UHGV virus genome: UHGV-0117503
Direction: 5' to 3' (one strand)
Length of the DNA stretch: 10,777 bases
Source: a virus
In this document: one piece after another, positions 1 through 9,732 of the stretch
Position numbering within the stretch: the stretch's first letter is position 1
Layout: each line of letters opens with the position of its first letter
Notes under the pieces: generated by a model
What the model was told of the DNA's origin: nothing
Seen by the model: the letters and a program-made list of their open reading frames with translations, nothing else
Database searches by the model: none
Translations under genes and position numbers: made by a program

Positions 1-262
1 TTCGCTCCGCTGCAACTGCAGGAAACCTACGACAACAGCGGGCTGAACATCGGATTCCCGGACGCCGAACTGACGGGCGTTCTGATCTGCGTGGACGTCA
101 CCGAAGCGGTCGTCGACGAAGCGATCGGGCACAGGGCCAACCTGATCGTGTCGCATCACCCGCTGCTATTCCACCCGTTACGCCGGATCGTCGGGGCCGA
201 CGCTTCGCAACGGATCGCCGCGCGCTGCCTGATCGCCGGCATCTCGCTCTATGCCGCGCACA
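1..262 (+). CDS. Nif3-family (YbgI/YqfO-like) protein, internal fragment; open at the window start and lacking its own C-terminus
   Basis: Frame 1 is open from nt 1 and reads ...YDNSGLNIGFPDAELTGVLICVDVTEAVVDEAIGHRANLIVSHHPLLFHPLRRIV...ISLYAAHTN, matching the Nif3 signature from memory (WDNxGL, HHPLIF, LYxAHTNLD). My own count gives about 65% G+C over nt 1-240, unlike the rest of the window. The end coordinate is approximate. Confidence 0.5.
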
Positions 263-523
263 CCAATCAGGCTCTTGCAAACTTCGCAGGTTTCGTTGTG
301 GCTGTGAGCTTTAGCTTCTTCGCGAATGCAAAATTCACATTCAAAGCTTCGACTACAACGATGCGCTACATGTTATATGTAGGATTCATGGGAACACTGA
401 GTGCTACTGTTGGATGGGCTGCCGATAAATGTGCACTTCCTCACTCTTGTCACCTTCTCCGCCATCAGCCTGGTTTGCGGTTTCGTCTATTCAAAGTTCA
501 TTGTCTTTAGGGATGCGAAATGA
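263..523 (+). pseudogene. gtrA: gtrA-like bactoprenol-glucose flippase remnant: N-terminus replaced and body frameshifted
   Basis: From about nt 263 the same frame reads QALANFAGFVVAVSFSFFANAKFTFKASTTTMRYMLYVGFMGTLSATVGWAADKCALP, which matches GtrA as I recall it. The expected C-terminus [26 protein letters not shown] is in the adjacent frame (open 401-523), ending at TGA 521-523 in an ATGA overlap with the gtrB start. The frame switch lies at about nt 439-445. Confidence 0.55.
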
Positions 524-1431
524 AGATATCTCTTGTAGTTCCTGTCTTCAATGAAGAAGAAGCAATACCAATTTTTTATAAAACGGTACGTGAATTCGAA
601 GAGTTGAAGCCATATGAAGTGGAAATTGTTTTCATAAATGACGGAAGCAAAGACTCTACGGAGTCAATTATTAATGCTCTGGCTGTTTCAGATCCCCTAG
701 TTGTTCCGCTGTCATTTACACGCAACTTTGGTAAAGAACCAGCATTGTTTGCAGGATTAGACCATGCAACAGGTGATGCCGTTATTCCTATTGATGTTGA
801 CCTGCAAGACCCGATTGAGGTTATTCCTCATCTTATTGAAAAGTGGCAGGCAGGCGCTGATATGGTGCTTGCTAAACGTTCGGATCGTTCAACCGATGGA
901 AAATTAAAACGAAAAACAGCTGAGTGGTTCTACAAACTTCACAATAAAATAAGTAATCCAAAGATCGAGGACAATGTTGGCGACTTTAGACTAATGTCCA
1001 GACATGTTGTTGAGAATATTAAACTTCTACCAGAACGAAATCTATTCATGAAAGGAGTTCTAAGCTGGGTTGGTGGAGAAATAAGTATTGTTGAGTATGC
1101 CAGAGCGGAACGCATTGCGGGGACGACTAAATTTAATGGCTGGAAATTATGGAACTTAGCTCTTGAGGGTATAACTGGTTTTTCAACATTTCCTCTACGA
1201 ATGTGGACATATATAGGATTATTTGTTGCAACAATATCATTCATGTACGGAGCATGGATGATATTGGATAAAATTTTATTTGGAAACAACGTACCAGGTT
1301 ATCCCTCACTTCTTGTTTCTATTCTTTTTCTTGGTGGGATTCAATTGATTGGCATTGGAGTCCTAGGTGAATATATAGGAAGAATCTATATTGAAACCAA
1401 AAAAAGACCTAGATACCTTATAAAAAAATAG
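520..1431 (+). CDS. gtrB: GtrB, bactoprenol glucosyltransferase (GT2 family)
   Basis: The 303-aa ORF starts [29 protein letters not shown], contains DGSKD and a DVDLQD-type GT2 motif, and ends in two C-terminal transmembrane helices and ...IETKKRP. It is near-identical over its length to enterobacterial prophage GtrB/YfdH as I remember it. Confidence 0.93.
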
Positions 1432-1432
1432 G

Positions 1433-2893
1433 ATGCATATGAACTTTTTAATTAGAGAAAGCGAAAAGAAAGCATTTGCTTTATTATTTGCAACCGCATT
1501 GCTTTTTATATATCCATTAATGCATTATGGTATATATTTTCGAGACGATCTACACAGATCTGTAACTGGATACTATGGATGGAGCGGCCTTGGTAGACCA
1601 CTCGCAGATATAGTTATAAAAGTAGCATCAGCAAGCGGAGATAGACTATTAGATATTTTCCCGTATAACTTAATACTATCTTGCGCCATGCTATCACTAG
1701 CATGTATACATATAGCTAGATTATTACAACATCTAAACATAAAGAAGCCAACGTTTTGTGCCTCATTGTTTATCTTTAATCCATTTTTTCTACAAAATCT
1801 AGCTTATAGATTTGACTCCACAGGAATGTCTTTAGCACTTCTTCTTTGTGCGCTTTCATACACCTACCAAAATAACAATATTTATATATCATTGGTAATT
1901 AAAATTTCACTTGGTGTCGCAACACTTTCACTGTATCAACCATGTGCAAATCTATTCATTGGGTTGCTATCAATCGAGCTCTCTGCATTATTCATTACTA
2001 ACAACACAAACAACAAAAAATTATTTTTAACATTAATCAAAAAAGCTGGAGTATTTTTATCATTCTACTCTATTTACTTTCTAATCGTAGCAAGAATATG
2101 GGGTTCAGAAAACAATAGATCTGAAATCGTCAAGTTAAATACAGATGGATTAAATCATATTTATAATACATTCCAAAGACTCAATACCTTGCTTGAGTCA
2201 TTTTTTAATGGTCCAGTTATTTTTTATTTTATACCACCGGTTATTTTATTATTTATTTTTATTATCCTTACCGTTTACAAAAATAGAAACAACTCGTTGG
2301 CAACCAAGATGCTTTTATTATTGCTATCATTGAGCTCGGCATATATATCTCTTCTTGGGCCGACATTTATTCTTGTTGATGCGCCCGTATTTCCAAGAAC
2401 GCTGGTAAGCTTCTCAATCCTCTTTGTTTTATTTTCCATGTATATAATTTCACTTTGTGATAAGCTAAAATGCATTGCATTAATACCTGTAGTAACAGTA
2501 ATAGCATTTAGCTCTCAATTTGCCAACGCACTGAACACCCAAAGAGAACATGAGAACTTTGTTTTAAATATGGTTGCATATGATTTAATGAATATAAATG
2601 GAATACAAAAAATTAAGACAGTGGGCAAGATAAGATTCAGTAAAAGAGCTGAATTACTCACAAATGATAAGCCTCTAATAAGCCAATCTATAAGCAGGGC
2701 TACTGAATTTCTTGCAACTTATCAAATGGTTAACAAGGGCTTGAAAGGTGTAAGCGATGGTTATGGCATAGAAAAATCCAATAAGGAAGAGTTGGACTCA
2801 TTCAAAAGCAATGGTGTTAAACCATATGTTGATAACAATGAATACTCAATATATGAAAATAATGGCGTTGCAATTGTAGTTTTTAAGGGATAA
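1433..2893 (+). CDS. GtrC-family serotype-specific O-antigen glucosyltransferase (polytopic membrane protein); type not identifiable by eye
   Basis: The 486-aa ORF lies immediately after gtrB (gtrB stop 1429-1431, ATG 1433; an alternative ATG at 1439 has AGGA 5 nt upstream). It is very AT-rich, with many hydrophobic segments and a hydrophilic C-terminal domain, which is the usual third gene of a gtr cassette. Confidence 0.75.
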   Translation: MHMNFLIRESEKKAFALLFATALLFIYPLMHYGIYFRDDLHRSVTGYYGWSGLGRPLADIVIKVASASGDRLLDIFPYNLILSCAMLSLACIHIARLLQHLNIKKPTFCASLFIFNPFFLQNLAYRFDSTGMSLALLLCALSYTYQNNNIYISLVIKISLGVATLSLYQPCANLFIGLLSIELSALFITNNTNNKKLFLTLIKKAGVFLSFYSIYFLIVARIWGSENNRSEIVKLNTDGLNHIYNTFQRLNTLLESFFNGPVIFYFIPPVILLFIFIILTVYKNRNNSLATKMLLLLLSLSSAYISLLGPTFILVDAPVFPRTLVSFSILFVLFSMYIISLCDKLKCIALIPVVTVIAFSSQFANALNTQREHENFVLNMVAYDLMNINGIQKIKTVGKIRFSKRAELLTNDKPLISQSISRATEFLATYQMVNKGLKGVSDGYGIEKSNKEELDSFKSNGVKPYVDNNEYSIYENNGVAIVVFKG

Positions 2894-2920
2894 TACGCAA
2901 CTAAAATAGTTCTGCATTGC

Positions 2921-2960
2921 TCATTAAGACCAATCAATCACATCAGATTGGTCTTAATGA
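2921..2960. terminator. Perfect 15-bp inverted repeat (hairpin) between the convergent gtrC-type and tailspike genes
   Basis: tcattaagaccaatc (2921-2935) pairs with gattggtcttaatga (2946-2960) around a 10-nt loop, 28 nt after the gtrC stop and 21 nt before the tailspike stop. There is no clear U-tract on either side, so intrinsic-terminator function is uncertain. Confidence 0.4.
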
Positions 2961-2980
2961 AATTACGCCGCGACCAGTTA

Positions 2981-4957
2981 TCACCTCCATTTAAACCGAG
3001 GTGAATATTCCCCGTTATTGAATCTTCCTATACTTACCTGTATTGTCGCCGGAGAATCAGAAAGAACCTCGGTGCTATGCAATGATAGTATAAGTGATGA
3101 TGATTCTATATCTCTATCTGCTTCGACCACATAACCATAATCTCGTTCTGGCTCTGTAAAATAAGCTATTGGTTTTCCGTTTGCTGCAATGGTAAATCTT
3201 CCACCAACAAATTTACCCTTGAACATAACATGTATTTTTATCCGAGTAACTCCCTTCGGTAAAACACAACCAGCATTTAATGATGCTGTAGAGTTTATAT
3301 TGAAATCTTTCCTTATCACTGTGTATGGAATTGCATATAAAGCTTCAGCAAAGTTTGATTGAGACTGATACTCTGTCGCAGCAATAGAGCTCCCCCCCAT
3401 AATTCTAAATCCTCCAACACCGGAGAACACACTATTAAAAGCATCCACAGCTTTCGTAAAGTTACCAATACAAACAGGTGTTTCTGCATCATTAATGAAT
3501 TGTTCCCTTGAATACAATGTCACACTGTTTATATATGTACTTTTATAACCACCAATATCATCAGGGCTTAAAAATCCATACCCATTGGAACCATCAGATA
3601 CGCCATTAAATTCTGTATAATAGCTACAAAATTCGTTAGATGATCTTGGAGATGTCTCAATCCATCCAAATCCAAAATTTCTCTCTGACTGAATATTGCT
3701 ATAAGTACACCCACTACTCCGCGTTATAAGGCCTGCGCCACTATAGCGCGTCGCTGAGTCTGGTGATGGGTCAAAATCACCATTGCGACCATTTGTGTGT
3801 GTACGTATACGTAAAAAACTAACAGAATTTACAGCCAAATCATCAGTTTCTCCTTGAGTAGGATAACCAATAACAACTCCGCGCCCATAGTTATCATGTG
3901 CAACTATTGTTCCAAATGAACAGAACCAAGACTGATAAACTGATATGCCGACGACACGAGCATTTATGGCTGTAATATTGTCGCAATGTGACTCATTTGT
4001 AAAATATCTAAAATAAAATCCATTTGTCGCCTTATTATCACAATCAGAAATTATATTTGTAATTCTTACTGAGCTTACATCTTCAGTTGGTGTAACTCCA
4101 ATTGGAGAGCGAGAGCATCTAATAACAGCCTTTTTAATTGCAACATCCCCAATCCATTTAATGGTTGTAGCAAATCTATTACCTGCTCGCAGAGAATTTC
4201 CATATCCTCTCATATCCAAGCCATTTGGAGGCACAAACTCATCTGTAATTCCAATAACACCAGCTGGAAGGATTAAAGGTAGTTTATTATCAGATGCGAA
4301 TTTAGCAGCACTGGTTAACTCATTAATTGAATCTTTTTCTCCATTTAAATTAACCCCCCACCATTTTAATAGAACTTCTCCATTGATATTTCGTTTCCAC
4401 CGCCTCCCAATTGCGTCAATAAGTATTGTTCCTCCATTATCTTGAGATGTAGAATCATACTTATCAATTTCAAATATTCCATTTCCACCATCAAATATAT
4501 TTCGCACACCATATACATAGCATCTATGCATATTCCCGCTATAATTTCTAATATCTTCGTAATTTGCTCCACCTATATATCCCAAACCGAAGCTTTGAGA
4601 TAATTGAACTTTAAATTGATCAGGTTCATACTTCAGCACATTCGGAAAATAAAACTGCTGAGCACCGTATGCATCATAAACAGCCATAGAATGGCCTTGC
4701 ACAGTTACGAACTTGGCAATCTGTCCGTTATATACCGGGTAACCAGCAGCGTTAATGATGATTGGTTGCGAAACAGGAACGTGAGAGCCGTCTTCGTTCT
4801 CCATATAAACCTGAATCTGGTTTTCTGGATTTACGGGGTCCGTGTCAATTTTACCGATATAAATTTTGCCATTGGCTACCGCTTTAAAAGAACGAGCCAT
4901 AGTGAAGAGTTGCGAAGGCATGCTTACCACAACATTGGCATTTATTGAATCTGTCAT
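2981..4957 (-). CDS. Tailspike protein: P22/Sf6-like head-binding N-terminal domain with a divergent receptor-binding (probable beta-helix depolymerase) domain
   Basis: The N-terminus [51 protein letters not shown]...[27 protein letters not shown] matches the conserved P22/Sf6 tailspike N-terminal domain from memory. The start is set at the internal ATG (4957..4955) that gives MTD..., not the upstream start at 5002 in the ORF track. The remaining ~540 aa are rich in G/N/S/T/I/V. Confidence 0.88.
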
Positions 4958-4982
4958 TTTAATTTCTCTATATGTTAAGCAA

Positions 4983-5016
4983 GCAATATTCATTGCTAGC
5001 ATGTTTTTTGTATAAT
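4983..5016 (+). promoter_or_regulatory. Putative sigma70 promoter for the HNH gene, in the divergent tailspike/HNH intergenic region
   Basis: A consensus TATAAT sits at 5011-5016 directly preceded by TTG, with a small palindrome GCAAT-ATTC-ATTGC at 4983-4996 upstream. No convincing -35 element at 17-bp spacing. Confidence 0.3.
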
Positions 5017-5044
5017 GAGTGAACTTTATTTAAAGGTGGTTAAC

Positions 5045-5554
5045 ATGAACTGGAACGAAGTATTCGTATTAAAAGACGATGGACTCCTGTACTGGAGTGA
5101 CCAATATCTTTCAAGACCCAAAATGTTCAATATTTCTAAAGAAAAGCCTACAGGACATATATTCAAGGACAAGAACAGGAAAACATCTTATATAATTATC
5201 AGGTATCAAGATAAAATATACGCCGCCCATAGGATAATATGGGAAATGTTTTATGGTGAAATCCCTTCAGGAATGCAAATTGACCATAAAGATGGTAATG
5301 GGTTAAATAATTCAATAGACAACCTGCGTCTAGTTAGTCTCGGTGAAAACCTAAAAAACAAATCTAAATACACAAACAATACATCTGGGTGCGCAGGTGT
5401 TTCATGGCATAAGACCCATAAAAAGTGGGTGGCATATATTAGCGACGCAGGGAAGCGCATTAATCTCGGATACTTTAAGTGTCTCGATGATGCAATTGCT
5501 GTAAGGCGTGATGCTGAAAAGACCTATGGTTATCATGAGAATCATGGTAGGTGA
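5045..5554 (+). CDS. HNH endonuclease with a C-terminal AP2-like DNA-binding domain (homing-endonuclease-like)
   Basis: Motif IDHKDGNGLNNSIDNLRLVS is HNH-like, followed by GVSWHKTHKKWVAYIS...KRINLGYFKCLDDAIAVRRDAEKTYG, which is AP2-like. The start is set at ATG 5045, which has AAGGTGG 5 nt upstream; the ORF track begins at 5015. Confidence 0.8.
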   Translation: MNWNEVFVLKDDGLLYWSDQYLSRPKMFNISKEKPTGHIFKDKNRKTSYIIIRYQDKIYAAHRIIWEMFYGEIPSGMQIDHKDGNGLNNSIDNLRLVSLGENLKNKSKYTNNTSGCAGVSWHKTHKKWVAYISDAGKRINLGYFKCLDDAIAVRRDAEKTYGYHENHGR

Positions 5555-5685
5555 TATCTGACATTTCATTGCTCCAGACGAATGATATGATGCAACCATG
5601 ATGTGATTGCATACCGAAATGGTACTATTGAGTATTTATCCAGTAGGTTACGATGCCATTCCACCCAACTGGTGAGGCATCAAGG

Positions 5686-5946
5686 ATGTACAGCAAATAC
5701 GACGAGGCGCAGTTTCACTTGAGACTTCCGCATGAACTCCACGCGAAAATTAAACAGCGCGCGAAGATGAATAACAGGTCGCTGAACTCAGAGATAATTG
5801 CAGCGATTGAAGAATCATTGGCTAAACAAAGCTCTGCATCAGTTTACATTGACGATGCAGAGCGTATGGCAGAACAACAATCTGATATGGTTAAGAAAAT
5901 TGTCTTTGATACGCTCAAAGAGCTATATAAAAAAGACAGCAGCTAA
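5686..5946 (+). CDS. mnt: Mnt-like ribbon-helix-helix repressor (P22 immI-type)
   Basis: The C-terminal half DDAERMAEQQSDMVKKIVFDTLKELYKKDSS closely matches P22 Mnt (...NDAERLADEQSELVKKMVFDTLKDLYKK) as I recall it, and the N-terminal region FHLRLPHELHAKIKQRAKMNNRSLNSEI is RHH-like. The start is set at ATG 5686 (GAGG 8 nt upstream), not the track start at 5653. Confidence 0.8.
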   Translation: MYSKYDEAQFHLRLPHELHAKIKQRAKMNNRSLNSEIIAAIEESLAKQSSASVYIDDAERMAEQQSDMVKKIVFDTLKELYKKDSS

Positions 5947-5966: not shown

Positions 5967-6044
5967 ATGCAAAGAGATATGCTGAATATTGCGTTCTACA
6001 TATTTGGTTTTTGCACGTTCCTGGTGTTTGCGAAGCTATTCTGA
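5967..6044 (+). CDS. Hypothetical 25-aa hydrophobic peptide (possible single-pass membrane protein)
   Basis: GGAGGA at 5958-5963 is followed by ATG at 5967. The ORF encodes MQRDMLNIAFYIFGFCTFLVFAKLF and stops at TGA 6042-6044, 21 nt after mnt on the same strand. It is absent from the ORF track because of its size; it is unproven. Confidence 0.25.
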   Translation: MQRDMLNIAFYIFGFCTFLVFAKLF

Positions 6045-7199
6045 CAACGCATCAGACTTGGCACCTTGAGTCAGGGCGTTAATGGCCTTTTGCGCCTGCT
6101 GCATGGCTTTCTCAAACGCTGTTGATCCGCGTGGGGTGTTTGCCATTCGGAGCATTGCATTTCTGAATGGCTCGCTCTCATAGGCGCGAGTAAGAAGTCC
6201 GTAGCTTACCGCTGCGCCAGTTGTCGCCGGGTTCATTGCCGTCCCATATCCGATAATGAACGGGATGGTTTGCTGCCCTGTTGGTGTTGTTACTGCTGCT
6301 TTTGCAGCCTGCTGCGTGGATTGCAGGTAGTTTTTCAATCCTTTCAGATAAGCGGCTTCATGACCTTTAAATGTGATGCCAGTCTGGTTTTGCAGGATAT
6401 TAAGCTGCCGAAGGAACTGGTCAGGGGATCCGCCAGATTTCTCCATCGCCTTTCCAATGATGCCATTGCGCATTTGCGCCCTGCCAACACGACCAACTGA
6501 GTTATACAGCGTCTTAATTTCAGATTTGTTCTTGCTGAATAGCATGTTGTTGACAACTTCCGGCGTCAGGTCGCCTTTCATGAGAACATTCTTCAGCCTG
6601 GTATTCTTTAGTTTCGCCGCTTCGTCAGCGTAGACGGCATTGGCCTGCTGATATTTACGAAGAGTATCATTGCCAAGATTCTGACCAATGGCACCATTGA
6701 TATCGTCGGTCATCGCCTTGTAAACTCGCTGAATGGCAGCATCGGAACGGTTTGGTAACACTGGTCGCTCACCCTTCACGTCCATTCTGAACTGGCTGCG
6801 CAGATCGCTTAATTGCTTCAAATCCAGATTGACCGGACCATCAGGACCAGCATTGCGAACAAGCTCATCACGATATGACTGAAGTTTTGAAATAGTCTCG
6901 TTATCAGCCACCTTACCAAGCTTCTGCAGATTAGATATCTCAGTATCAATCTGCTGAATTGCTCGCGCAGGCTGAATGTTTACTCCAGCCATAGCATTCT
7001 GAACCTGCTCCAGTCGATTACCGGCGGCACGCCGAATTCCTGATGTTTTCGCTTTAAGGCTGTCAATAACAACTGCCGGATCGTACTCGCCGAATTTATC
7101 AGCAAATCTCTGCACCAACTGACTTCTCGCTTCCTGTTGCGTTGCTCTCATTCCGCTTGTGCCAGCCAGGGGGATATTTTCTGCTGTGGTCTGCGCCAT
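6036..7199 (-). CDS. Virion ejection/internal protein, probably the C-terminal part of the lytic-transglycosylase protein encoded upstream (387-aa ORF)
   Basis: Long ORF in the late-gene orientation. Its frame is open upstream of the ATG at 7199 as far as a stop at 7334..7332 and reads protein-like there (GAIAPEAQQAIRFAEREGVPLHTTDLLQPTSRVGK). It overlaps the upstream ORF by 52 nt. Confidence 0.6.
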   Translation of the reverse strand: MAQTTAENIPLAGTSGMRATQQEARSQLVQRFADKFGEYDPAVVIDSLKAKTSGIRRAAGNRLEQVQNAMAGVNIQPARAIQQIDTEISNLQKLGKVADNETISKLQSYRDELVRNAGPDGPVNLDLKQLSDLRSQFRMDVKGERPVLPNRSDAAIQRVYKAMTDDINGAIGQNLGNDTLRKYQQANAVYADEAAKLKNTRLKNVLMKGDLTPEVVNNMLFSKNKSEIKTLYNSVGRVGRAQMRNGIIGKAMEKSGGSPDQFLRQLNILQNQTGITFKGHEAAYLKGLKNYLQSTQQAAKAAVTTPTGQQTIPFIIGYGTAMNPATTGAAVSYGLLTRAYESEPFRNAMLRMANTPRGSTAFEKAMQQAQKAINALTQGAKSDALSE

Positions 7200-8413
7200 T
7201 TTCCCGACGCGGGAAGTAGGCTGTAACAGGTCTGTGGTGTGCAGAGGAACTCCTTCACGCTCTGCAAATCTGATAGCCTGCTGCGCTTCTGGCGCAATAG
7301 CACCACGAACGCCACGATACGTCCGGCAGCGTTAATAGCACCGCCAGCCAACACACCAACGCCTAAATCGGTGGCGAGTGCTTCCGCATCATCTTTCGCA
7401 CTATTTGCAGCAAGTGATCCAACTGCGTTTTCAGCGAGAAGGCGAGTTGCCCCCTGAGCAATTCGACCAGCAAGTGTTGGTGCCTGTGTTGCCGCTCTCT
7501 CAACGCCAGCAGGAGTGAGGTAAGGCAACGCTTCAGCAAATACCCTTCCCTCTGTCGTTTGTGGAGTCAGCGCGCCTTGCTGAAGGCCAAAGTCCTGCTC
7601 TAATCCCTGCGTTGTTACTCGTGGCGCTGGTTGATATGTACCATCGCCAATGCCGAGTTTACCGCCAGCCCAAGCCGCCGCGCTTGTTACAGCATCAGTG
7701 AGTTCAGCAGGTATGTTCGCTACGTTGATTCCTGCCTGTAGTAAGCCGCGCCCGGTTTCAGCAAGTCCATTACCAAGGTCAGACATTATTCCGCCTTGTT
7801 GCTGAACAGGTTTCGGTGCGACAGAACTTACGGGTTGAGGTGGCTGCTGACTGGCTGCCTGCTGCTCAATCTGAGCAAATGGATTATTTGGGTCTGACTG
7901 CACACCTGATGCCGATACTTGTTCGGATGACTGTACTTCCAGTTGTGCAAACGGGTTGTTAGGGTCTTGCTGAGGATGTACCTTTGCAGAGGTGGCGCGC
8001 TGTTCGACTGTTGAGTCTGTCACCGGGTCACCCGCCCATTGAGCAAAGCGATCATCAACGTAACCGCGGCCTTCAGGTCCTGGCGTATATTCACCACGCT
8101 TTGCCTTCATAACGTTGCCGGGACCGTCGTGATAAGCCTGAAGAGCGTCACGCCAGTTACCAAACTGCTGGTACATCTTTGCCAGATAGCGCGCGCCAGC
8201 GTCAGCCTGATATTCGGGGTTTTGCATTTGCTCATCGGTATAACCCATATCACGCCATGTCCCAGGCATGACCTGAGTCAATCCTACAGCCCCGGCGGAG
8301 CTTACTGCGGCAGGGTTGTAAGAAGACTCCTTGGCACCCAGTGCAGTCATCAACCCTTCTGGCACACCGTAACGTGCGCCAGCCTGCTCTAACAAATCAC
8401 GGTAATTAGCCAT
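7148..8413 (-). CDS. Virion ejection/internal protein with an N-terminal lytic transglycosylase (SLT) domain; the last ~55 codons of this frame are probably out of frame
   Basis: N-terminal GAKESSYNPAAVSSAGAVGLTQVMPGTW...YLAKMY is a classic SLT catalytic-region signature. A Q/P-rich linker carries a duplicated DPNNPFAQ motif. The C-terminal stretch of this frame (RIVAFVVLLRQKRSRLSDLQSVKEFLCTPQTCYSLLPASGKWRRPQQ...) looks like non-coding translation. Confidence 0.75.
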   Translation of the reverse strand: MANYRDLLEQAGARYGVPEGLMTALGAKESSYNPAAVSSAGAVGLTQVMPGTWRDMGYTDEQMQNPEYQADAGARYLAKMYQQFGNWRDALQAYHDGPGNVMKAKRGEYTPGPEGRGYVDDRFAQWAGDPVTDSTVEQRATSAKVHPQQDPNNPFAQLEVQSSEQVSASGVQSDPNNPFAQIEQQAASQQPPQPVSSVAPKPVQQQGGIMSDLGNGLAETGRGLLQAGINVANIPAELTDAVTSAAAWAGGKLGIGDGTYQPAPRVTTQGLEQDFGLQQGALTPQTTEGRVFAEALPYLTPAGVERAATQAPTLAGRIAQGATRLLAENAVGSLAANSAKDDAEALATDLGVGVLAGGAINAAGRIVAFVVLLRQKRSRLSDLQSVKEFLCTPQTCYSLLPASGKWRRPQQKISPWLAQAE

Positions 8414-9211
8414 TTACTGCCCCAAAGATGGAAGATATCCGTAGCGATTAATGAAGTCGATTGACAGCTCGGGGTGCTGCTTCAGGTAATCTATAGAAGC
8501 CTGAGGCGCTTCCACTCGCTTGATACCGTTTTGCTGAACGTACTTACCAACCGCCTCATTACGCTTCTGGTTGAGCGTGTTCAGGATGACGCCAGCGTTG
8601 CGACGAAAGGACTCCTCGCTCTGCGAGTTCTGCAGCGAACCAACAGCCTGGTCGAGCTTTTTGCCCTCGGCATCAGAAAGTGCGCCCATGCCTCGCATGG
8701 CCTGAACCGCTGTCAGGTATGCTTGTGATTTAAAGGTATCAAGTCGTGCCTGAGTGTCTGCAGCCTGTGAGCCTGGAACGTTGGGGATTACTCCACGTAA
8801 GCCTGTAATGCTCTTAAGTGAAGGAGAACTAACGATATCGTTCAGAGTGAACATGCTGGTTGTGAGGGTGTTGATGCCGTCTTTGTAGCCATCATTTAGC
8901 GCTTGCTGCTTCTGCTGCAACTGCTGGTTGTTGGCTGCTATGCGGCTCTGTATTTCCTGGCGCTTCAGGTCGTTAGTTTCTGCTGATAGCATCCGGTCAA
9001 GGCGCTTATTTTCGTTGTTAATGCGGTTTGTTTCTGCGTCCAGATTAATGCGCTGCTGACCTAAATTCGCCTGGATATCTTGCCCGCGCATTGTGATTGC
9101 CTGATTCCGAGCGGCGGTTTGCGAATCCAGATCCTGACCGCGCATGGTAACCTGGCGACCCTGCATTTTATCCTGTAGGTCAAAGTATTTTTCGGGTCCG
9201 AGACTGTTCAT
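8414..9211 (-). CDS. Virion ejection/internal protein (265 aa) with a Q-rich coiled-coil-like region
   Basis: Its start ATG overlaps the stop of the upstream gene (ATGA at 9208-9211), and its stop TAA (8416..8414) directly abuts the ATG of the SLT protein. The content RIAANNQQLQQKQQALNDGYKDG is typical of phage internal proteins. It sits between the gene-7 and gene-16 positions of P22. Confidence 0.7.
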   Translation of the reverse strand: MNSLGPEKYFDLQDKMQGRQVTMRGQDLDSQTAARNQAITMRGQDIQANLGQQRINLDAETNRINNENKRLDRMLSAETNDLKRQEIQSRIAANNQQLQQKQQALNDGYKDGINTLTTSMFTLNDIVSSPSLKSITGLRGVIPNVPGSQAADTQARLDTFKSQAYLTAVQAMRGMGALSDAEGKKLDQAVGSLQNSQSEESFRRNAGVILNTLNQKRNEAVGKYVQQNGIKRVEAPQASIDYLKQHPELSIDFINRYGYLPSLGQ

Positions 9212-9732
9212 CCCAGGTGATCGAACTGCCGCGGGTTCTGTTGGTACATCTGAGCGACGTCCTGAGGATTAACGCCAACACGAGCTAACTCACCGGCGTT
9301 GTTTTGCAGCCATGATTGCATTGCTTCTGGAGACGATGACGCAAGGCGTGCGCCAGCCGCTAAGGTGCCGATAGAATTACGCTGATCTTCATCAATGAAT
9401 CCCATGCCTTTACGAACGGATTCAATCTGGTCTGGATATTGAGTAGCCAACTGACGCAAAGCACTGCGATCACCAGACGCATAAGCATTAGCGTACGCCT
9501 GCTGAAATTCTTTCTGCCGCTGAGCCTGCTTTTCCTGCTGAAACACCCCTGCAATACCTGAAAGGCCTTGCAAAGCAGTCAGCCCAACATTGTTAGCGCC
9601 TGAACGCTCAATATCATTGTTCTGCCTGATAAGCTGAAGCGTATTGCCGATGTCATTTACGCTCGGAGCGTTTGAGTTGACGCCGCCGATACCAGCCAAC
9701 AATCCGCCGTTTGTTCCTTGCCAAGTAGCCAT
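9208..9732 (-). CDS. Virion ejection/internal protein (174 aa)
   Basis: ATG at 9732..9730 has AAGGGG upstream. The product is G/A/Q/N-rich, and the gene is tightly coupled to its neighbours on both sides. Confidence 0.7.
   Translation of the reverse strand: MATWQGTNGGLLAGIGGVNSNAPSVNDIGNTLQLIRQNNDIERSGANNVGLTALQGLSGIAGVFQQEKQAQRQKEFQQAYANAYASGDRSALRQLATQYPDQIESVRKGMGFIDEDQRNSIGTLAAGARLASSSPEAMQSWLQNNAGELARVGVNPQDVAQMYQQNPRQFDHLG

Follow-up and report, generated by a model that had tools for sequence, protein, structure and literature searches.

A three-part mosaic tailspike from a P22-like Escherichia coli prophage, with a receptor-binding module that very probably targets the O81 O-antigen

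The tailspike described here is that of a P22-like (Lederbergvirus-type) prophage of E. coli and carries an uncharacterised receptor-binding module. Judged by where its homologies begin and end, the gene is a three-part mosaic, in which an anchor is joined to an N-proximal domain and this in turn to a β-helix with a C-terminal domain. The host distribution of the receptor-binding domain makes the O81 O-antigen very probably its target, and we consider it likely that the protein serves an argW-integrating P22-like phage as a receptor-binding spike whose residues ~116-658 bind the O81 O-antigen and cleave it as an endoglycosidase. The stretch of DNA that was analysed, referred to as the window, comprises 10,777 nt of the viral genome UHGV-0117503, in which the spike and its modules are arranged as follows.

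2981..4957, minus strand: tailspike CDS, complete, 658 aa plus stop (from the ORF listing and its translation)
4613..4957, minus strand: module 1, head-binding (virion-anchor) domain, residues 1-115 (assigned by PF09008 and by identity to Sf6 and P22)
4280..4612, minus strand: module 2, N-proximal small β domain, helix and first β-helix cap, residues ~116-226
2981..4279, minus strand: module 3, main β-helix and C-terminal β-sandwich, residues ~227-658

A sequence-only reading of this DNA had placed a tailspike at 2981-4957; the tailspike is there, with the strand now corrected to minus. Its ORF of 1977 nt is full length and uninterrupted. A plus-strand reading of the same interval was discarded, its translation being riddled with stops. 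We take 4957 as the start because the first residue of the 658-aa form is where alignments with the solved Sf6 gp14 set in; a longer ORF from an in-frame ATG at 5002, which would add 15 residues, was rejected, as the homologues all begin at the MTD... methionine. Public assemblies of isolates and of gut metagenomes contain the identical 658-aa protein on at least 24 contigs, and the tailspike is 99% identical to a protein cluster of 223 member sequences. RefSeq proteins at 99% identity carry the annotation 'phage tailspike', and PF27114 (Phage_tail_beta) is a precomputed match (E ≤ 1e-5) for the exact protein and for 14 homologues; our own Pfam search did not return PF27114 for the tailspike, and the assignment is that of the precomputed match. 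Databases thus know the domain that had earlier been called unrecognised. No NCBIfam model matched the spike, gtrC or the HNH protein.

The N-terminal ~115 residues are Sf6/P22-like, as the sequence-only reading had proposed, with P22 the more distant of the two. Residues 4-114 match PF09008 (Head_binding) at an E of 7.8e-65, covering profile positions 3-113 of 113, and the anchor aligns over its full length to the solved head-binding domains of Sf6 and P22. Identity amounts to 87-90% for residues 1-115 against Sf6 gp14 (PDB 7sg7), to 83-91% against HK620 (83%), CUS-3 and other coliphage spikes, and to 74.5% over ~110 residues against P22. Homology thus shows residues 1-115 to be the part that docks the spike onto the tail.

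Where P22-like prophages bear another spike, as in 23CRST042 and E41, DNA homology to them ends at 4611-4614, which corresponds to residue 115/116. The earlier claim of a mosaic therefore stands, but its two-module form gives way to three modules: a second breakpoint lies at residue ~226, near-identity to a siphovirus beginning only at window position 4279. Across the 1300 nt of module 3 (window 2980-4279), nucleotide identity to the spike gene in a contig from Logan SRR10822050 is 98.9%. Outside the spike gene this contig, 44.8 kb long, has genes for a tail tube, tape measure, DNA polymerase A and SNF2 helicase, and it matches Escherichia phage 26 and Raoultella phage RP180 there at ~90% identity; it therefore represents a Kagunavirus-type siphovirus. 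The distal 433 residues of its spike are nearly the same as in the tailspike studied here, implying equal receptor specificity, whereas its N-terminal adaptor is of another kind (a faint PF18668 match, TSP1/gp66-type), residues ~116-226 are divergent, and the phage itself is virulent-type and long-tailed. Module 2 is the sole part beyond the anchor with sequence matches in the PDB, namely to WceF (6tgf) and the Acinetobacter AM24 tailspike (5w5p), and residues 4-307 are 45% identical to the spike of Salmonella phage SEN22.

Among 24 homologues, the receptor-binding body is mounted on three kinds of N terminus: the P22 anchor, the TSP1/gp66 type and a very short one in proteins of 540-549 aa. 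An exhaustive HMMER search revealed a broad superfamily of 1247 cluster representatives at E ≤ 1e-3, of which only about eleven match strongly over the full length. We posit that modular recombination would have built the gene from an anchor common to many coliphage spikes and a distal part held in common with a virulent siphovirus. Next to the spike lies a gene for an HNH_3 plus AP2-type endonuclease (CDS 5015-5554, plus strand), a presence/absence insertion that occupies window 4960-5549 and begins just 3 nt before the start codon of the tailspike; 23CRST042 has it, no107 and E41 do not, and several metagenome contigs have a truncated 102-aa form. A mobile endonuclease that borders an exchangeable spike gene could promote recombination there.

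Beyond the anchor region the protein is unlike the P22, Sf6 and HK620 catalytic domains, as had been surmised: in phmmer searches of all PDB sequences and tblastn searches of 50,697 phage records, these three spikes align only from residue 1 to ~125-143. The AlphaFold2 monomer model of residues 116-658 (pLDDT 87.9, pTM 0.81) predicts, in order, a small N-proximal β domain, a helix, the strands of a right-handed parallel β-helix (~residues 233-522; window 3392-4261) and a C-terminal β-sandwich (~residues 543-645; window 3023-3331). Foldseek against the PDB matches this model to the Klebsiella K2 depolymerases Depo32, K2-2 TSP and DpK2 and, within the same range of E values (3e-13 to 1e-8), to the Acinetobacter AM24 and Fri1 spikes, CBA120 TSP2 and TSP4, and WceF; the Sf6 spike is a weaker match (E 1e-5), and structural matches in BFVD are models of phage tail fibres and spikes. 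The predicted β-helix and its depolymerase tailspike neighbours agree with the carbohydrate-active fold that the sequence-only reading had expected, and none of the characterised spikes shows high identity to the domain.

The best overall structural matches, Depo32 (7vz3), K2-2 TSP (8iq9), AM24 (5w5p) and Fri1 gp49 (6c72), have the N-proximal β domain and the β-helix in common with the tailspike but differ from it in sequence (9-16% identity), in their anchors and in their substrates, which are capsules of other genera. With Sf6 gp14, P22 gp9 and HK620 gp9 it shares the head-binding domain, the gene position and the plan of an anchor followed by a parallel β-helix. In sequence, the best annotated relative is an Acinetobacter K32 depolymerase record in GenBank, '3073b-K32' (39% identity, residues 209-562). 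Acinetobacter (pro)phage proteins are 36-42% identical over residues 209-560 and retain the invariant D/E/R residues, but are without the C-terminal β-sandwich (residues ~540-658). A PDB profile search with the 24-sequence alignment returned, beyond the N-proximal domain of AM24 (5w5p), only chance-level matches, a de novo protein among them. A link to the characterised K32 glycosidase APK32_gp46 was tried as support for a hydrolase mechanism and dropped, BLASTP (E 0.032, 153 residues, 22% identity) indicating that the two are unrelated; nor is APK32_gp46 related to '3073b-K32', which does match the tailspike, and a literature search for '3073b' yielded unrelated papers only.

The case for O81 is built on the hosts. 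Megablast of the tailspike gene against 5426 complete E. coli genomes located the anchor DNA in more than 1100 of them and the receptor-binding DNA in 10, six at full length and four as 3′ remnants only. Among the 5426, 11 have the O81 wzy gene; the receptor-binding DNA is present in nine of the 11, the other two being without the tailspike gene; the joint occurrence in nine genomes has a hypergeometric p of 5e-26, a value that ignores shared ancestry. In the carrier no107, wzx and wzy of the O-antigen cluster are both annotated O81, the cluster includes a CDP-glycerol glycerophosphotransferase, and uronic-acid genes were not found in it. The tenth carrier, FHI_NMBU_03, has lost its O-antigen region and is hence untypeable; we considered it as a counter-example to O81 specificity and rejected it as such, the record being without any O-antigen region. 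Although labelled 'complete', this record (NZ_CP019455.1) lacks a segment that begins with wcaK, takes in the O-antigen cluster, gnd and the his operon, and runs up to the genes adjoining yeeN. The first sequence of the record is an IS1397 remnant adjoining wzxC, and the last lies shortly after yeeN; the junction falls where the record opens and closes. The strain may have turned rough through an IS-mediated deletion, or the assembly may have a gap here.

The SpikeHunter preprint independently describes O81 as polyphyletic, spread over several E. coli clades that are strictly tracked by the prophage tailspike cluster cl60_897 (PMC10370184). The tailspike studied here is distributed in the way described for that cluster, nine of its ten carriers being O81, and its association with O81 has probably been reported computationally already, cl60_897 being the candidate. 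Vertical inheritance explains the host association in part: four of the nine O81 carriers hold truncated remnants beside a retained gtr cassette. The only experimentally supported O81-recognising phage protein that we found in the literature is LtfB of the T5-like phages DT57C and DT571/2 (PMC4728585), which is a lateral tail fibre, in contrast to the β-helix spike considered here.

The gtr genes converge on the 3′ end of the tailspike gene from the opposite side of an inverted repeat.

248..510, plus strand: gtrA remnant (PHROG GtrA matches ORF residues 47-122 only)
520..1431, plus strand: gtrB, bactoprenol glucosyltransferase, 303 aa (PHROG GtrB, E 1e-177; yfdH in no107)
1433..2893, plus strand: gtrC, serotype-specific O-antigen glucosyltransferase, 486 aa (PF14264 Glucos_trans_II, E 2e-27; PHROG GtrC-like)
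2922..2959, no strand: perfect 14-bp inverted repeat, arms CATTAAGACCAATC (2922-2935) and GATTGGTCTTAATG (2946-2959) separated by a 10-nt gap

Lying where gtrC and the tailspike gene converge, between their stop codons, the inverted repeat is probably a bidirectional terminator hairpin, to judge from its sequence. A consensus terminator scan, whose loop limit is 8 nt, missed it; the five terminator-like sites that the scan did report are all inside coding sequence.

The gtrC type of this locus (at least 99.6% identity) is present in nine of the same ten carrier genomes and nowhere else among the 5426. In the tenth, KSC207, only the last 44 nt of gtrC are left, and intS abuts the spike. The sequence-only reading had held the pairing of spike and gtr to be biologically meaningful; the co-distribution of gtrC, nearly all of it in O81 genomes, bears this out, whereas KSC207 shows that the pairing is not obligatory. 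Spike body and gtrC travel as one AT-rich cassette (GC 32-38%), yet they are separable. Across window 1400-4600, which comprises gtrC and the receptor-binding region of the spike, the GC content is 28-38%, versus ~50% in the ejection-protein genes, an AT-richness consistent with a horizontally moving specificity cassette. Two tailspike copies each are present in KSC207 (NZ_CP019558.1, 15,510-18,779) and no107, and KSC207 has the same type of phage in a derived form that has lost gtr, seemingly as tandem prophages. According to Zdorovenko et al. (2018), as cited in PMC7685785, the O-antigens of O81 and HS3-104 differ solely in glucosylation; gtrC probably explains the glucosylated O81 variant of strain HS3-104.

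Gene content and order mark the locus as a P22-like prophage occupying the classical argW site. Upstream of the spike, on the minus strand, are P22-type ejection-protein genes (homologues of gp7, gp20 and gp16 by PHROG), with the genes for an Arc/Mnt-type repressor and the HNH endonuclease between them and the spike. As in P22-like phages, the spike gene closes the late region and has the immI-type repressor and the gtr/int end as neighbours. The same gene order is found beside intS and tRNA-Arg in no107, 23CRST042 and E41; in no107, the block is next to intS and tRNA-Arg (argW), beside yfdC. The repressor ORF (5653-5946, plus strand) encodes 97 aa here versus the 86 aa (261 nt) annotated in related genomes, and its best PHROG is labelled 'partition protein ATPase', seemingly a mislabelled family. 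Two of the ejection-protein genes are split in this copy.

7148-8413 and 6036-7199, minus strand: gp16-type ejection protein (SLT domain), two overlapping ORFs, 16-bp deletion at ~7320
9208-9732 and 8414-9211, minus strand: gp20-type ejection protein, ORFs of 174 aa and 265 aa with an ATGA overlap

A scaffold from a human-gut metagenome, ENA ERZ28575161, agrees with the window at 99.9% identity from position 441 on, and its gp16 is split in the same way; the 16-bp deletion was called against 23CRST042 and E41. The gp20 split follows deletions of 1 bp and 12 bp at 9212-9222 (13 bp in total), and it may be tolerated, because the two-ORF form is also present in several independent contigs with an intact gp16. 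gtrA has unrelated sequence in place of its 5′ end, and its C-terminal frame is shifted by an 8-bp deletion at 443 (relative to no107); together these lesions make the gene non-functional in this copy. We rejected homopolymer sequencing errors as the source of the frameshifts, the lesions being deletions of 8, 16 and 13 bp. The first 247 nt of the window have 63% GC and contain a NIF3/DUF34 fragment (PF01784, E 4e-28) fused in frame to the 5′-truncated gtrA; they have no match in E. coli genomes, whose homology begins at 248, and the junction looks like a chimeric join in a metagenome scaffold. This copy is probably a defective prophage, a partly mis-assembled scaffold, or both, with the spike ORF intact.

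Residues 1-115 anchor the spike to the virion tail; we posit that the β-helix part would bind the O81 O-antigen, a glycerophosphate-containing polysaccharide, and that endoglycosidase cleavage of this polysaccharide would open the way for the virion to reach the outer membrane. In lysogens, gtrABC would glucosylate the same O-antigen and so present an altered receptor; this expectation comes from the likeness to P22, Sf6-type phages and Hf4s and from the gtr-dependent glucose side-branch published for an O81-type strain. Hydrolytic activity is suggested by the predicted fold together with invariant acidic residues. D209, E240, D305, E370, R280, R317, R385, Y315, W268 and W344 are identical in all 24 aligned homologues, and D239 is conserved in 23 of them, in an alignment that includes Acinetobacter proteins at 36-42% identity. 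This conservation makes D239/E240, D305 and E370 candidate catalytic residues, and the invariant arginines may be ligands of the anionic glycerophosphate.

That the β-helix acts on capsule, colanic acid or another exopolysaccharide, and not on the O81 O-antigen, seems to us improbable. The closest solved or annotated relatives are indeed capsule or EPS depolymerases (Klebsiella K2, Acinetobacter K-types, WceF and '3073b-K32'), and the best PHROG of the N-terminal part is labelled 'colanic acid degradation'; this latter match, however, covers residues 2-135 only, that is, the anchor, and a colanic acid locus that is near-universal in E. coli would not yield a distribution of 10 in 5426 tied to the O81 wzy. 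A capsular target is also at odds with the adjoining gtr cassette, which modifies O-antigen and has the same distribution; the target may be a K-antigen linked to O81 by chance. It is likewise unlikely, if a little less so, that the domain binds the O-antigen without glycoside hydrolase activity, as an adhesin, lyase, epimerase, esterase or phosphodiesterase-type modifier acting, for example, at the glycerophosphate. β-Eliminating lyases require uronic acid, and an O81 cluster without uronic-acid genes argues against a lyase; the fold is not that of esterase spikes such as G7C gp63.1, which speaks against an esterase. Invariant Asp/Glu along successive rungs are typical of hydrolytic spikes, and the assayed Acinetobacter Friunavirus spikes, which belong to the same fold class, are all hydrolytic glycosidases, though none is a close homologue (PMC8092837); both points favour the endoglycosidase over a non-hydrolytic binder.

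More weight is due to the possibility that the spike in this window is an unused relic in a decaying prophage, intact by chance or because decay is recent, with only gtr mattering to the host, although on balance we lean against it. The deletions in gp16 (16 bp), gp20 (13 bp) and gtrA (8 bp) and the lost gtrA 5′ end point that way, as do four complete genomes that retain gtrC with only a 3′ spike fragment, and given the lesions in gp16, gp20 and gtrA, the spike of this copy may never enter virions. Yet its ORF is full length, and the same 658-aa protein recurs unchanged on no fewer than 24 contigs; the gp20 split accompanies an intact gp16 in several independent assemblies and is maybe tolerated; gtrA is damaged here as well; and, since the window comes from a metagenome-type scaffold with one chimeric end, faulty assembly could have produced some of the lesions. 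Whether the spike is a relic bears on its activity in this host, not on what the protein is.

The argW-integrating P22-like coliphages of the Hf4s/Kapi1 type resemble the phage proposed here in combining an O-antigen spike with gtr seroconversion on one O-antigen. Hf4s, the closest analogue that has been tested, targets an O22-like O-antigen, and the C terminus of its spike is common with an unrelated virulent phage (bioRxiv 10.1101/2021.06.09.447823). These phages differ from ours in receptor-binding domain and serogroup, and they have been isolated and tested, whereas the phage here is known from sequence alone.

Tailspike receptor-binding domains set which serogroup a phage infects, and the present spike leaves current understanding unchanged, adding one further serogroup to a known pattern. 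It provides a sequence-defined candidate reagent for E. coli O81, whether as a depolymerase, as a typing probe or as a swap-in module for engineered phages, and the locus is a worked example of three-module spike mosaicism, in which 98.9% nucleotide identity marks a dated-looking exchange between a temperate podophage and a virulent siphovirus. A more far-reaching reading, to which we give little credence, is that the spike represents a subtype for glycerophosphate-substituted O-antigens, in which three invariant arginines would read the phosphate, the chemistry or the cleavage site could differ from those of the P22, Sf6 and HK620 endoglycosidases, and the siphovirus copy would testify that a specificity module passed between a temperate and a virulent phage very recently. 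Were this subtype reading true, the two spikes would be a matched pair in which one module can be compared on two tail architectures, and the same pair would show how the linked gtrC blocks both phages.
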